Sequence record: NZ_CP148139.1
Origin: a plasmid
DNA length: 64,000 bases
Reading direction: 5' to 3' (one strand)
Shown here: piece after piece, positions 24,001-33,000 of the stretch
Layout of the letters: every line of letters starts with the position of its first letter
Numbering within the stretch: the stretch's first letter is position 1
Program-made: the position numbers

Positions 24001-27000
24001 AGGGTTTCGTTCTAGGCGTTTCATAGTTTCTCACTGATGGTAAAACAGACAAAATACGATAAACATTAATTATCAGTTTATGTAGCTAAAAGCATTTCTA
24101 AATGATGTTTCACCAGAAATTTGAACATGACTCTATCATAACCGAGATATTGCTCGACTGATAAATTAGCAATGAATGCAGCTTCAGTCATTGTTATACC
24201 ATTTGGATTCTGATCTAAACCTAAAATTCGCCTCATAGCCTCTGATTCTGCACCTCTCATGAGTGTAAACACTTCATCAGAGCAACGATGTTCTGGAAGT
24301 AATTCCTTTGTAATTTTCAAGGGATTTACGCCAGCATGATAATTTGCTGTTTTGTCTCTCTCGATTAGGTTAATTCCTTGGTTTCCCTCGCGAAAATCAA
24401 TTAAAGGGTCTATGACGGTATGAGCCTTTGTCTCGATCCATGAGTATTGCAAAATGCTGTTTGTGTAAGCTAAATCTGTCTCCGGAGTTTGGACCAGTTC
24501 TTGCTTATAGATACCAATCACAGCCTCGCCCTCAATGTATCCCTTTTTTAATAATTGTCGGCATAATAGATATGAATATGGGTACATCTGAATATCGTCA
24601 GCTATTGTTCTCAGACTCGTGTATTTTTCCATTTTGAATCCAAAAAAGCCCCAAAAAGGGGCTGTAAGGTAGTTTTGGGAGAGTTAACGATCACTTACTG
24701 GTTGTGTTTGCGCTTACTTTTTCATAATGAATAGAATCAGTTCTTTCATCAGGGCTTTTCGCACTAAGTAATATAAATGTATAATTTTGTTTACCATGAG
24801 TGATGAATAAGTCTGTGCCGCCCCACACTTCAGAACTTGGCTTTTTAGATAAGAGCAAAATGTTATTTGGTAATAATTTGATATCGAAATGATCGTCATG
24901 GTCTGAGCCATTGATGAAGTAATTGAGCTCTTTAACGGCTTCAGATTGTGCAGGTAGGAAAATTTTCACTGCAAAATTACGGTAGAGATAGACTTTAGTT
25001 TGTGAATTTGGCGCGTATGGGATCGTTAATTGCCTCCCAACGTAGTCAAGATTTTGGTCATTTTCAGTGCGTTTATTTCTTTCTTCCAATGCTGCATCAA
25101 ATACGTTTTTAAAGTCTTGTTGCTGTGTTGGAGCCTGATTGCTGTAATACCCATCACTGAGCTCCTGAGCTGCCGGTGCAGGTGGTTGACCAGTAAAGTT
25201 GGTACTTAATGCCTGAGTGTGTTCCACTACTGAAGTAGCTGCTTCGCTAACATGCTCAAGCATGTCATTAATGCTTTGTTCGCTATCAGATGGATTCTGT
25301 TTTTCTGTATCGCCAGAATGTTCCTCTACTGCTTCTGAAAGCGTTTTAGCTACGTCACCTGTAACAGTGTCGGATTTAGCTTCAGATGTCGGAGAATCGG
25401 TTTTAGCTACGTTCTCGGCACTGTTCGATTCTGGTTCTGCCTCTTTTGGATTGTTAAAAACAGGAATAGAGGTTTCAACGTCACTATAATAATTAACATC
25501 AATTTCTGTCGCGTCTGTTGCTGGTTTTAGTAAAACAAATGCTGCTATTGCACCCGCTGAAACTGCAACTGCAATCATGGATTTTTTATTCAGAAGAAAA
25601 CCAAGTCCTTTTTTACTTTCATTTTTTTTAGTATTGGAAGAAACATCCATCATTTTGAGCCTCAATAATCTGTGTTACGTGTATCTGCTATATGTTATAG
25701 AATTACACCCTACGAATAGGGCGCAATGGTTCTAAAAGCGGATTACTTTCTTAACAGCAATAATTTATCGGCTATCATTTTTCCATCCATGAGTGTCAGA
25801 CGGTCGGATGTTCTGTGACTGTATAGAACTGCATCGTTAGAAAACTTACCTGATGTGACTAGAAATACATGCTTAAATTCGGGTTCTGCTTCTAGTACAC
25901 CAACCATTTCACGGGCGATAGCAACACCTACATTGTCAGATTTCCAGTGTTTGCATTGAGCGAAAACTTTAATTCCATCACGTTCCATAATGATATCTTT
26001 CCCACCATCTGGACCATAATTAGTGACAGTAGCTCTGTACCCAAGGCTGTTGAATAACTCTCTTATAAATTCCTCAAATTCTCGCCATGATAATTCTCGG
26101 ATAAATTGCAATGCATCTTCATGATAGGTGGCATTAAAAAGTACCTTTTTAAACATAGTTTGTTGTTTATAACGAAAATACACACTTGCTGAATAAGCCA
26201 CGAGCAGGAATGCAACGCAAGAGCGTAATATATGGAATGTATAATATGTACAAACTGGGATATTCCTCAGAGAGAATAATTTATTCGCACTGCTTTGCCC
26301 GAAAACATCTGCATATGCTGTTTTTATATCTCCCCATATCAGTTGTATGATTTTCGTTGTTATCACATGGTCATAACGAAGAAAAAATACAGTTATTGTG
26401 GTAACAGCAATTATCACTAATGCAACTTGAGGGTTTAATAGAGGGGCATTTCTTTTGATTCCCACTGAAGCCCATTCAGGTTTCTTTTTCTTGTGTAACC
26501 GCAATATTTTGCTGCTAGGTGACAATATATAAACAGCAAATAAAGGTATTACTAAAGTTAAAACTCTCGCAATAGAATCAAATCTAAGAAATACCAGAGT
26601 GGTCATATAGAATATAAAAGCAATATTCATATTAGTTACATAGGGATTTCGTTTCTTAAATCTACGCTTTCTTCTCATTACAACATTCCAATTTACTAAA
26701 ATAGTAGCTGTGTCACAGTAAGTAAGGCTCCGTTCGGAGTGATATGTATTCCATCCTTTGTGCGAACTGTTGTCCCATCTATGACATCCTTGTATGTTTC
26801 ACCAAGAACCGTTCGTGTATCTACGGTGGTGATCCCCTCTATCTGCGAAGCCGTCTTTATGGCTTGCCGAGTGTTATCTAATAGTCTGTTTTTGGCGGGG
26901 TCTTTAAGGGTTGGAGGAAGTAACCAGATCACATTTTGGTTTCTGGCTTTTATGGTTTGGATAAAATGCCGAACTTTAGAGGTGTACTTTTCTTTTTCTG

Positions 27001-30000: not shown

Positions 30001-33000
30001 GTATATATATTATGAAATGCGTCTTTAAGGTTAAATATATTAATGTTGCTTCCATGCGAGTGTGTATTTATACCAAGGTAGTTAATCAACCACTGAATTT
30101 TGATAAGTCTAACGCAAAGATCTACACAGTATCGACTAACTTCATATTCTCCAGAAGCGAAAGATTCTGCATGTAATACAAGTTCCTCATATAACTTTAA
30201 AAACTCAAGGCTTTCTATCTTTGCTCTATGTTCTGTCAAAATGTTATAAATTTTAACTGTATTGCTATCTAAGTCATTTTCTTCAGGAAAATATAGCGTT
30301 ACCTTTTCTTGTTCACGCCAGTTTGGTTTTTTATTGTTTAATTCTAATTCCACGTATTTTTGAAGCCAAATATACTTAATTGATTTACTTGTTATAGATG
30401 TGTAGAAAACAAAAAATGGTACATTAAATAACAATGCATATTCTATAGTTTTGACGGGGAAATCTGGCATTTTAACACTACCATTAAAAATTTTTTCAGT
30501 GCCTTTGGCTTGTACAAAAAAACAGTCTCCTGTCGCTTTTTCGTTCTTAAATACTTGAATCATTAAATCGATCCCATAGTCACGTTCACCTATGGTATGG
30601 ACAACCCAATCTTTAGCTGGAACCTTCACATTGATAAGTGCATTTGCTTGAGAGTCGGTTACATGCGATTTACTTCTCATAATTCATCCTTTGTTAGTAT
30701 TGAAGGTTACGTGCAGCAGCCTCTAAGCGCGTTACACCTCGTTTATCATATCGCTGTGTAGTAGCGACACTACTGTGTCCCATCGCTTCTCTGACAGTAA
30801 GTAGGTCCTCACCGAGTTCTAACAGCTTAGTAGCATAGGTTCGGCGGCAATCATGGGGTGTGAATGACTCTAATTCTGAATCTTTCACCAATTTATCAAT
30901 AATATACCGTAAACCATCGGTTGTTATTCTATCGCAAGTCACATCATCATTTTTACGAATACGGGTGAAAACTGCACCGGAATGATCTCCCCTAACAGTT
31001 TCAATCCATAAGCGAGTGCGGCGGAGGGTATCACTTGGCATAAAATTAGTTCTTTCTTTGTTACCCTTCCCCATTATTTTTACGGCGTAGTTATCAAAAT
31101 TGATATCTTCCATATCTAACAAAGTGACTTCAGCACGGCGCAAACCGCATCCGAGCATCAGTGAAACAATCGCTGCATCACGTATAGAGACTGCGGTGTT
31201 TAGGCTATCAAGATGCTGATAAATTTGCGTTATTTCACTACTACTCAGTGAACGCCCTCTACCAATACGGTTCCCACGAATGCGACGTATGCTTCTAATA
31301 TCCTGATATGTATCGCTATCTATGGCTCGTGATGCTCTGGCTTCTTCAGCAACCCCTTTAATCGCGCTCAGGACTAGGTTGATACTATTTGGGGTCTTTT
31401 TCTCCAGTATTAACTTCTGAAGTACCAATTGGACCGAATCCCGATCCATAATGGACCAGTCAAACGTGAATGGGTCCTTAGAACGAAACAGCCTGACCAC
31501 CGACACGAGGCAGGATCGCATTGTCTTTTGACTTTGTTTGGAACGCAGCCGTAGCAAATAGCTGGTTGCTGGATTGTTGGTGTTTTTCGTCATGTTATTT
31601 ACATCAACAATACTTGTTACAGTGTCACGTAATATTAACTCTCCCATTACCGCCCTCTTTGGTGTAGAAAATTAGTGTAAAAATTATCGTTGATTCTGGT
31701 GCGTCAAACAGCAATACCTATCGAAAACCTAAAAAGATTTTACGCTACTACATTAAACGTATATTTAACCGAGTAAAGGGTAGCACAGGTATTTATCATC
31801 GAATAGCTAAAATATCGGTATTAGTACGCATTAAAAGGCTTGCAATCTTTAAATTGTTGTATAATGAAATTACGTTGTAAGTTCATAAAACTAATAATGA
31901 TTTTTACATTACTAATTACCTAACTGTTTCGGAGAGGGATAATGTCAGCGGTAAATGACTTGGGCTTTGGTTTGGTTATTACATTTTGGATCTGTCTAGC
32001 ATTCGTCATGTTATTAGTTTACATATTCAAATCCGATTTTAATAAGAAAGCCGTGAAAGATGGAAAGCGATATAGCCAGTTAAAAATTTATCGAACCATC
32101 GAGCGAGATTATAAAATTCTCTACGTACTAGGTGATGAAAGTTACAGTATTGAAGTAGATAAGGATTATTACGATGCGGCTATTGATAGATATAATCAGT
32201 CGATGAAGTGATATTCTTGTAAACTCTACAATTAATTAAAGAGGTTGTGATGAATTTAAAAAAACTAGAAATGGTAATCAGTCTTGTATTTTCAATAATG
32301 GTTTTTATTTTATTTGGTATGTTTCTATTTGAAGGTTCAATTCGATTAAATGGATTCTTCTTTGTTCTATTATATATTCTATCTGGTGCAAATATCTTTT
32401 TGATTACCTATAACCAAAATGGAGCAACAAGCAAAGTTATTGCCTACTTAGTAGCTTCAATTTTGTTGTTAATCCTGATTTTTGCTTTGATATTCGTTCT
32501 TTAAATTTCTACAAGTTTGTCATAAGTAACTAAATTTAATGTATTTCGTTTTTTTAGTTTAATTCTGAAATATATTTGAAATTCAAAGAGAGATAGATAT
32601 ACATGATTAAACAAATCTTTCGGTTTATAATTGGGGATAGATTTATCCCTTTGAAAAATATAGATAAAAACGATTTTAATCGACTTTCAGATTTTGAGTC
32701 AGTAGAGTGGCGAGTCAGAGTTATCCAAAATGGGGGGATTTATAAAAGGGAATGGCAGAAACGCCTTGATAATGAAAGGGAAGGAATAAAAACAAAACCG
32801 AAAATCAAACCTGAAAAGATTAAAATATCAAGGAAAGATTACGAGATAATATCTAAAATCACTGATGCAGGATATATTATTTTAAATTTTCCGGCAGAGG
32901 ACAAAATAGGTCGATTATCTAATGTTGATAGGATTCTGTTAGACCATCTTTCAAATGAAATTAAAATTGAATTATTAAATTCAAAATTAAGTCTTACTAA

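Follow-up and report, generated by a model that had tools for sequence, protein, structure and literature searches.

In IncA/C plasmids, RecA-independent recombination takes place at the RecHS site via a plasmid-encoded recombinase that was left unidentified (Hegyi et al. 2017, PMC5587640). The site resembles dimer-resolution sites (PMC5587640) and is located between rhs and int (PMC9709138). DUF4365 has been described as the DREN effector nuclease of the SPARDA short-Argonaute systems (PMC10810196), and in Divona, a single-gene cassette validated against phages, it makes up the N-terminal domain; Epona, in which two transmembrane (TM) segments are combined with an Mrr_cat domain, is likewise a validated single-gene system (both bioRxiv 10.1101/2024.07.02.601686). 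The DUF459 family is that of the PatB peptidoglycan O-acetyltransferases (PMC9487903). Proteins comparable to these are encoded together in an array of nine consecutive minus-strand open reading frames (ORFs) at 24691-31647 of a plasmid stretch of 64,000 nucleotides (sequence record NZ_CP148139.1), which was analysed as a whole and is referred to below as the window. Comparisons of pPrY2001-like plasmids treat the stretch of the array as a backbone of hypothetical ORFs (PMC6737455).

The window belongs to a pPrY2001-type MOBH/MPF_F plasmid. The 8.2 kb around the array is 100% identical to plasmids of 104.8 kb that were obtained from dairy manure by capture in E. coli CV601, and 98.4% identical to pPrY2001 of Providencia rettgeri, and nearly all of the 72 plasmid records matching the array region come from Providencia, Proteus, Moellerella and Morganella and are typed MOBH/MPF_F. 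We favour, with reasonable though not high confidence, a reading of the array as one terminator-bounded backbone operon of this plasmid type, composed as we propose of three layers of different age. These would be a tyrosine recombinase (Int) with its recombination site, a DUF4365 conflict gene, and an old envelope module made up of a signal peptidase (LepB2), a small lipoprotein, a membrane-anchored Mrr-type nuclease (TM-Mrr) and the protein p324, to which p184 beyond the terminator may be added.

As described in the initial annotation, the nine genes are tightly packed on one strand. Overlaps of 11 bp (p336/TM140), 17 bp (LepB2/lipoprotein) and 14 bp (lipoprotein/SGNH) are present and the remaining gaps measure 13-80 bp; from this spacing and the terminator after the last gene, 24691-31647 is one probable transcription unit. 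A promoter-like scan gave a result below chance. Domains were called at the curated Pfam cut-offs and also with NCBIfam and PADLOC models, while hydrophobic segments were located by a simple hydropathy scan. The domains assigned earlier (Peptidase_S26, DUF459/GDSL, Mrr_cat, DUF4365 and Phage_integrase) could all be confirmed above the curated Pfam cut-offs, and the catalytic residues of all five enzymes (LepB2, SGNH, TM-Mrr, DUF4365 and Int) are intact in the translations. The array had been called envelope-directed, which holds for six of its nine products; the term fits only part of the array because Int, the DUF4365 protein and p336 are cytoplasmic, with neither a signal peptide nor a hydrophobic segment. 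As had been stated, the described biology of MPF_F does not include these functions.

In the initial annotation the array was suspected to be an integrated cassette or a hotspot insertion in the transfer region. On such a reading the adjacent integrase would have carried the genes, as a cassette or genomic islet, into a hotspot of that region. The array is headed by an integrase-family gene, the DNA directly upstream of int differs among plasmids, and two of the genes, the Int-adjacent DUF4365 gene and the SGNH gene, are lineage-specific; they are the sole such additions to the block. Against insertion, all three annotated pPrY2001-like relatives examined, including a lineage of about 92% nucleotide identity, keep the whole block in the same order at the same place, between UvrD/traA on one side and hok-mazEF-parFG on the other, and at least 80% of the block is held in one piece by 39 of the 72 matching records. 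LepB2, the lipoprotein, TM-Mrr, p324 and p184 are moreover syntenic with an IncT/Rts1-type plasmid (26-39% amino acid identity), in which the neighbours match gene for gene up to traA and a UvrD-like gene in the opposite orientation. By their annotation, MOBH plasmids of Citrobacter and Klebsiella have this gene order as well, and the envelope module common to all these plasmids always stands beside traA and the UvrD-like gene. Judged by genus counts, the hit lists of p324, p336, TM-Mrr and the close LepB2 matches represent the same approximately 200 plasmids. The GC content of the block (0.33-0.40) is the same as that of the remaining backbone, Int has an orthologue in the IncA/C backbone, and the candidate recombination site is present in one copy. 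A search for long direct or inverted, att-like repeats bracketing the block, which had been suggested as a check, returned none; only the known 8-bp parC-type tandem repeats occur near parFG. The block is a conserved backbone operon of Proteus/Providencia resistance plasmids and not an inserted cassette, an origin that is already largely refuted and that we regard as very improbable. As the alternative to insertion, conserved core transfer genes in related elements had been named. The genes are conserved in related elements, so the alternative stands as far as conservation is concerned.

LepB2, the lipoprotein, SGNH and TM-Mrr retain 96-99% amino acid identity between lineages about 8% apart in DNA and are under strong purifying selection. 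The features of the region are listed in Table 1.

Table 1. Features of the array and of its immediate borders, in window coordinates
Feature	Position	Strand	Basis
Int, tyrosine recombinase, 317 aa, first gene of the array	30694-31647	-	Pfam Phage_integrase 4.3e-31
DUF4365 PD-(D/E)xK nuclease, 272 aa	29862-30680	-	Pfam DUF4365 7.3e-14
p336, cytoplasmic three-repeat protein	28831-29841	-	without Pfam match
TM140, small polytopic membrane protein, 140 aa	28419-28841	-	hydropathy scan; not annotated by PGAP
LepB2, type I signal peptidase, 249 aa	27589-28338	-	Pfam Peptidase_S26 1.5e-36
Small lipoprotein, 117 aa	27252-27605	-	lipobox LSSC with Gly at +2, from translation
SGNH enzyme, DUF459/PatB family, secreted, 189 aa	26696-27265	-	DUF459 2.6e-23; Lipase_GDSL_2 7.5e-11
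TM-Mrr, membrane-anchored Mrr-type nuclease, 311 aa	25743-26678	-	Mrr_cat 5.4e-23
p324, N-terminal helix, acidic linker and C-terminal beta domain	24691-25665	-	hydropathy scan, predicted model
Intrinsic-terminator-like hairpin at the end of the array, AGCCCC-TTTTT-GGGGCT with a T run after it	24647-24663	-	
p184, cytoplasmic, beyond the terminator and outside the array but syntenic with the envelope module	24078-24632	-	
Candidate RecHS-like recombination core site	31746-31775	not assigned	inverted repeat

Int matched Pfam PF00589 (Phage_integrase) with 108.4 bits (cut-off 27.1). The catalytic set R170, K194, H265, R268, H291 and Y300 was read from the translation and is invariant in the family comparison. 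Int is XerC-like but remains under the equivalog cut-offs, with 133 bits against 335 for TIGR02224 and 96 against 330 for TIGR02225. A role as XerC/XerD chromosomal dimer resolvase was rejected on the failure of these equivalog models and on the lack of a dif- or cer-like site, none of which was found in the window with up to nine mismatches. Identity of Int reaches 92-98% within the pPrY2001-like family and 44% towards the backbone int of IncA/C, which is present in 1797 plasmid records. Int is a backbone gene, not a cassette integrase.

The candidate core site lies 98 bp upstream of the Int start codon and consists of 12-bp imperfect inverted arms with a 6-bp spacer, TACTACATTAAA-CGTATA-TTTAACCGAGTA. 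It is single-copy in the window, where 0 copies are expected by chance. Both arms are exact in all seven pPrY2001-like loci compared, and variation within the site is found in the first three spacer bases only (CGT, TAC, TGC). The flanks are mosaic: at least four versions of the left side and two of the right side are combined independently between plasmids, and the megablast matches of six relatives stop at approximately 31811-31823, just beyond the site. Two AT-rich inverted repeats closer to the plus-strand ORF (31862-31888 and 31889-31917) were set aside as the site, because plasmids of the pSNYG35 type carry other DNA in this stretch and because chance alone often yields repeats of this kind (about 0.36 per 300 bp). 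The pattern of conserved arms and exchanged flanks is, as far as can be read from sequence, the one expected of a crossover site in a one-site resolution/cointegration system and not of an att-site pair.

With two bases added on each side (31744-31777), the site shares 22 of 34 positions with IR2 of the IncA/C RecHS, a modest similarity that includes the outer CTAC...GTA, the inner AAA/TTT and GTAT of the spacer. In pSN254, where the gene order around int is rhs ... int-exonuclease-ter-kfrA-uvrD-traFHG, an inverted repeat matching RecHS, TCTACTTATTAAAA-TGTATC-TTTGAAAAAGTAGA, lies about 1.2 kb upstream of int, and the described 13-bp perfect repeat is situated 27 bp upstream of this inverted repeat. 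As these RecHS-like repeats head a small gene group that ends with int, int is the obvious candidate for the RecHS recombinase. The pair of IR1 and IR2 occupies 7615-7704 of the locus compared from this IncC plasmid, in a divergent intergenic region, and fits the published RecHS description.

The sequence marks of the int-RecHS type are present in the window, namely a homologous recombinase, an upstream inverted-repeat core, a 6-bp spacer and a single copy. Both sites are imperfect inverted repeats upstream of an int-containing gene group on the same broad MOBH/MPF_F backbone, and in both the arms are conserved with variation confined to the spacer, as reported for RecHS (PMC5587640). The two systems differ in the length of the arms (12 bp here, 14 bp in RecHS), in the distance between site and int (98 bp here, about 1.2 kb in IncC) and in the gene downstream of int, which encodes the DUF4365 protein here and a 3'-5' exonuclease in IncC. 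Int and its single 12-6-12 site may be regarded as the counterpart of IncA/C int and RecHS and, on sequence comparison, probably form a multimer-resolution and cointegration system. Like Cre/loxP or ResD/rfsF, such a system would work with one recombinase and one site; it would resolve plasmid multimers and could fuse two site-bearing plasmids.

The region between the core site and hok (approximately 31780-33300) is variable. The window carries three small plus-strand ORFs there (31942-32211, 32247-32504 and 32603-33061), in place of which pSNYG35-type plasmids have one different 265-aa ORF. In the 332-kb Moellerella plasmid pW1-a, typed MPF_T, the block is cut within p336 by an IS30 element (4840-6443 of that locus), and the maintenance part with mazEF, hok, int and DUF4365 is joined to other DNA. 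Several further carriers of the block are cointegrates of 200-380 kb, which would fit a fusion-prone recombination site.

The second layer, the DUF4365 gene, is hypervariable. The protein scored 52.4 bits against PF14280 (cut-off 24.3). Alleles of 100, 88, 74, 52 and 39% identity were found across the collection in backbones that are otherwise 92-99% identical, and the protein showed 75, 51 or 42% identity in plasmids in which Int is 92-98% and p336 90-94% identical. The divergent DNA block has sharp edges, one at the 5' end of p336 and the other at the DUF4365 start codon; p336 and the faster-evolving TM140 share the same more divergent segment. What is exchanged between alleles is the C-terminal half; the N-terminal nuclease core is retained. 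The core ERDYGxD...FFVQxKGT is conserved, with D38 and Q57-x-K59 invariant in four alleles. Homologues of the same length, with 43% identity over 75% of the query, were located in two kinds of niche for accessory genes: as a cassette in the array of a Vibrio chromosomal integron, flanked on either side by attC-like repeats, and in a P2-like Aeromonas prophage, between ogr/portal and gpA, a position that we take to be a slot for accessory and defence genes in such prophages. On account of this hypervariability and of the homologues in accessory niches, the DUF4365 protein is read as a defence or conflict nuclease, and its gene is probably a defence gene.

The DUF4365 protein shares with Divona and the SPARDA DREN nuclease the N-terminal DUF4365 PD-(D/E)xK domain, and with them it is a stand-alone gene of about 270 aa. 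The position of its homologues in an integron cassette or a P2-like prophage slot recalls Divona, which stems from a Vibrio cholerae integron. Unlike these systems, it has no detected crr6 or APAZ domain and no detected Argonaute partner, and it represents a hypervariable allele within a plasmid operon, directly after a recombinase. Pfam and PADLOC scans of the protein and its neighbours for an APAZ domain, a short Argonaute and crr6 (PF08847) gave no match, and assignment to SPARDA was rejected for lack of an APAZ domain or an adjacent short Argonaute in them. The gene would be a lineage-specific conflict gene. Its product most likely belongs to the Divona/DREN type, as an abortive or defence nuclease encoded by a single gene, and the variable C-terminal half would serve as sensor.

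Next to it, p336 carries three GW...P.WW repeats, as noted initially (G83W84/P98W100W101, G197W198/P208W210W211 and G318W319/P329W331W332), and these motifs are invariant in homologues down to 51% identity. The AlphaFold model is of low confidence (predicted local distance difference test, pLDDT, of 52). For repeats 1 and 2 it shows a beta hairpin together with three helices; repeat 2 is predicted best (residues 124-173, pLDDT about 58-76) and repeat 3 is less regular. Each repeat would consist of a winged-helix-like unit followed by GW...P.WW, and p336 is probably a DNA-binding protein. Word-based homologue searches with p336 and p324 returned close relatives only; distant homologues of p336 (19-24% identity) are encoded on the IncT-type and Citrobacter plasmids, 4-5 kb away from lepB.

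TM140 has approximately three hydrophobic segments in the hydropathy scan. Its ORF is intact and free of indels in the lineage of about 92% nucleotide identity, with 75% amino acid identity and 91% positives. RefSeq/PGAP does not annotate the gene on these plasmids. In its place the IncT-type plasmid encodes a small protein of similar size, membrane-spanning by translation, and the Citrobacter and Klebsiella plasmids have an ORF of similar size; sequence similarity between TM140 and these positional counterparts was not detected. TM140 could be an entry-exclusion-type protein.

Within the envelope module, LepB2 is a predicted type I signal peptidase of the S26A LepB type. It reached 126.3 bits against Pfam Peptidase_S26 (cut-off 22.9) and 119.7 bits against TIGR02227, the model of bacterial signal peptidase I (cut-off 47). 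The boxes S56-M57-A-P-T, K99-R-IIGLAGD and GDNRDHSWDSR in the translation provide the Ser-Lys dyad S56/K99, and the hydrophobic segments 1-22 and 29-48 correspond to two N-terminal TM segments; in all three respects LepB2 is like LepB. The TraF/TrhP-like S26 peptidase of the tra operon, encoded at 3516-4031 next to traC, is 24% identical to LepB2 (E-value 3e-8), which agrees with the earlier claim of a second, distinct peptidase; NCBIfam models assign LepB2 to signal peptidase I and not to the TraF type. Classification of LepB2 as a TraF/TrhP-type pilin peptidase was rejected, since it scored 28.9 bits against a cut-off of 100.25 for TIGR02771 and is located outside the tra operon. IncT/Rts1-type plasmids and large plasmids of Citrobacter carry syntenic orthologues with 39-41% identity, and a lepB is annotated at the corresponding position of a Klebsiella MOBH plasmid of 176 kb.

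Dedicated extra signal peptidases exist, such as the plasmid-encoded SipP and SipW of Bacillus. Like these, LepB2 is co-encoded with exported proteins; unlike them and unlike LepB, it occurs on a plasmid that also carries a separate TraF/TrhP-type peptidase in its tra operon. LepB2 would be an active peptidase and process the exported proteins of the plasmid, i.e. SGNH, p324 and possibly the TraA propilin leader, in which case transfer would not depend on the host peptidase. The lipoprotein assignment made earlier is upheld by the lipobox L16-S17-S18-C19 in the translation. In the lineage of about 92% nucleotide identity the lipoprotein is 96% identical, with identical signal and lipobox, and its C-terminal PC...GC region is homologous to an IncT-type lipoprotein of 115 aa (7e-8). 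Both the lipoprotein and the exported beta domain of p324 would act in the periplasm.

TM-Mrr scored 81.7 bits against PF04471 (Mrr_cat, cut-off 21), and its motif D228, Q241-C-K243 fits D...(E/Q)xK. Three hydrophobic regions, equivalent to approximately four helices, were located in the hydropathy scan and agree with the polytopic Mrr_cat protein proposed initially. The nuclease domain is placed in the cytoplasm because the N-terminus and a stretch after the last hydrophobic segment are basic. Towards the IncT-type orthologue TM-Mrr has 26% identity over the full length (5e-34). The Rts1-type orthologue has an extra C-terminal topoisomerase-type zinc ribbon. TM-Mrr is like Epona and PDC-S02 in being membrane-anchored with a C-terminal Mrr_cat domain. 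It differs from Epona by its approximately four TM segments instead of two, and from both in that it is highly conserved and keeps, within one plasmid clade, a strict synteny with p324, a lipoprotein and a signal peptidase. The nuclease domain would be held on the cytoplasmic side of the inner membrane, at the point of DNA entry or exit.

In p324 a TM segment, which would be a signal or anchor helix, was located at residues 27-50, followed by a variable, disordered linker. The protein is acidic, with 47 D+E against 31 K+R, as expected from its first description as a protein with an acidic linker. The model has a pLDDT of 37 and predicts strands only in the C-terminal region. This C-terminal domain is 34% identical to a 410-aa protein of the IncT-type plasmid (2e-16), and an exhaustive HMMER search found the beta domain in 15 clusters among 1.84 billion representatives. 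Seven of ten members of the p324 family, as well as the IncT-type orthologue, gave matches below the cut-off to positions 5-105, in the N-terminal part of the CagX/VirB9 profile (PF03524), with values from 2.5e-6 to 2e-3; p324 itself gave no match to this Pfam model, and the VirB9-like hint could not be confirmed. Beyond the terminator, p184 is 33% identical to a 221-aa protein at the same position of the IncT-type plasmid (8e-30), and a scan of the collection with the single protein yielded only two close Proteus contigs.

In the IncT-type locus (at 11205-12278 and 12345-13319) a ParB-family gene is inserted between the orthologues of TM-Mrr and p324, and a divergent TelA-like (toxic anion resistance) gene group, absent from pPrY2001-like plasmids, lies upstream. 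Beside the array of the window, a 358-aa protein (22948-24024, minus strand) without Pfam or PADLOC match contains PDYRLILKDGRQVFVEVKN, which reads like a PD-(D/E)xK motif. It would be a third nuclease, next to the UvrD-like helicase at 21275-22852 (plus strand). A 30-nt inverted repeat with 73% complementarity and a 16-nt loop (21021-21096) separates the UvrD-like gene from a divergent gene for a 313-aa protein.

The SGNH enzyme would be a later addition to the envelope genes. It scored 82.9 bits against PF04311 (DUF459, cut-off 27.2), and its closest solved relatives are PatB (8tlb) and a DUF459 protein (8gr2), both at about 4e-6. The catalytic blocks are complete, with S28 (GDS), G81/N83 (GTND) and D171/H174 (DGIH). 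The PatB equivalog model NF045704 failed with 24.7 bits against a cut-off of 580, and PatA (MBOAT) was not found among the 17 ORFs scanned around the block. The IncT-type plasmid encodes an unrelated protein at the SGNH position. Homologues were found in 175 plasmid records, nearly all from Providencia, Proteus, Morganella and Moellerella (Morganellaceae), on unrelated backbones that include an IncX8/MPF_T plasmid, Rts1 at another locus and plasmids of 230-380 kb. We propose from this distribution that the enzyme was added in the Morganellaceae lineage.

These Morganellaceae genera are among the peptidoglycan O-acetylating bacteria, and the modification blocks lytic transglycosylases (PMC6174289). 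Affiliation with the DUF459 SGNH family, the intact Ser, Gly/Asn and Asp-His blocks and secretion connect the plasmid enzyme with PatB and the Ape esterases, as does the O-acetylated peptidoglycan of its hosts (PMC6174289). In contrast to PatB, it measures only 189 aa and is thus much shorter, has no PatA among the neighbours scanned, and is plasmid-borne on several unrelated backbones. We propose that it would edit O-acetyl groups on N-acetylmuramic acid. The plasmid also encodes an SLT-domain protein, beside an FlhC-type activator. With such editing, the O-acetylated sacculus of Proteus and Providencia could become accessible to this transglycosylase, which would open it for the transfer apparatus.

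Several results weigh against the reading as a three-layered backbone operon, and all mechanisms proposed above are inferred from domains, context and variation. No motif common to the upstream regions of int or lepB and the tra promoters was found. For the recombination layer, the match of 22 of 34 positions was reached by 25 of 2000 shuffles of the 294-bp region, which makes the similarity modest, and the RecHS papers cited here do not formally name its cognate recombinase. The PADLOC match of the DUF4365 protein is weak (9.3e-5), and its C-terminal half did not match Divona's crr6 domain. As acetyltransferases, PatB enzymes require PatA, of which no gene was detected among the 17 ORFs scanned around the block, so that the SGNH reaction could run in either direction. 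The PADLOC match of TM-Mrr to PDC-S02 (1.5e-12) covers residues 192-303 only, i.e. the catalytic domain, and the protein is unusually conserved and syntenic for a defence gene. The CagX/VirB9 matches in the p324 family are all below the 34.2-bit cut-off, the family profile did not match PDB sequences, and both AlphaFold models (p336 and p324) are of low confidence.

The envelope module could instead be an essential, clade-specific part of conjugation, with LepB2 as propilin peptidase, the lipoprotein and p324 (by its VirB9-like beta domain) as structural or assembly parts of the outer-membrane complex and TM-Mrr in the processing of transferred DNA. Its constant place beside traA and near mobH, the strong purifying selection and the recurrent, if weak, CagX/VirB9 matches of the p324 family would all suit such a part. 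Pilin maturation in RP4 needs both LepB and a TraF-type peptidase, and the plasmid has both peptidase types. The same MOBH/MPF_F machinery is, however, found without the module in IncA/C, of which about 1800 records are missing from the hit lists of LepB2, p324 and TM-Mrr. Moreover, hhalign did not detect a relation between p324 and the plasmid's own TraK, and a decayed remnant with an Mrr fragment, p324 and p184 persists on an Arsenophonus plasmid typed non-mobilizable. An essential conjugation part is therefore considered doubtful. Also conceivable is a region devoted mainly to defence and exclusion, in which TM-Mrr would be Epona/PDC-S02-like, the DUF4365 protein Divona-like, the lipoprotein and TM140 factors of surface or entry exclusion, and the peptidase and SGNH unrelated passengers. 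PADLOC matches exist for both nucleases, Epona and Divona are validated as single genes, and the lipoprotein and TM140 resemble the small lipoproteins and small inner-membrane proteins that are the usual exclusion factors (PMC11493245). TM140 also evolves fast, and sequence similarity to its positional counterparts was not detected. TM-Mrr and the lipoprotein, on the other hand, are not diversifying but conserved at 96-99%. Matches to TM-Mrr over roughly three quarters or more of its length were restricted to the same plasmid clade, and in phage records no match beyond the catalytic domain was found. TM-Mrr also keeps a fixed synteny with LepB2 and p324 throughout the clade, which speaks for one functional unit, and a defence or exclusion island appears fairly improbable to us.

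A further possibility, quite improbable in our estimate, is that LepB2, the lipoprotein, TM-Mrr, p324 and p184 form a so far unrecognised functional unit of one MOBH/MPF_F plasmid clade, in which a membrane-tethered Mrr nuclease is coupled to a periplasmic partner that is processed by the peptidase and has a VirB9-like domain, at the site where DNA enters or exits the transfer apparatus, and that the Int orthologue is the RecHS recombinase of IncA/C. Such a unit would process transferred DNA or destroy the incoming DNA of competitors.

Outside the array, two arrays of 8-bp tandem repeats, ATAAACAC and ATTAACAC, at 34659-34756 and 35512-35593 flank parF/parG; they are the counterpart of the parC centromere repeats that have been described in plasmids like pPrY2001. 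On the backbone at 37648-38127 a type VI secretion gene of the Hcp family is annotated (33649-34128 of a compared locus), with a BrxA-family fragment just beyond it. At about 38 kb, where the resistance region starts, the GC content rises from approximately 0.35 to 0.55.

The detailed analysis of the region showed that it mixes a RecHS-type recombination system, a hypervariable defence-type nuclease and a clade-specific envelope module with a host-adapted peptidoglycan enzyme. Current views are not overturned by it and no new mechanism is demonstrated. Plasmids of the pPrY2001 type disseminate blaNDM-1 and further resistance genes in Proteus, Providencia and Morganella, and the genes of the array are listed in published comparisons as hypothetical backbone ORFs only. 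Together with Int, the 30-bp candidate site could explain multimer resolution, the frequent cointegrates and the mosaic backbones of this plasmid family, and the two point to a candidate for the RecHS recombinase of IncA/C. The hypervariable nuclease allele in a stable backbone marks an ongoing conflict with phages or rival elements. The presence of a PatB-family enzyme on unrelated plasmids of O-acetylating hosts suggests that conjugative plasmids must adapt to the cell-wall chemistry of their hosts, which, if true, could explain host range and offer a target for blocking transfer.

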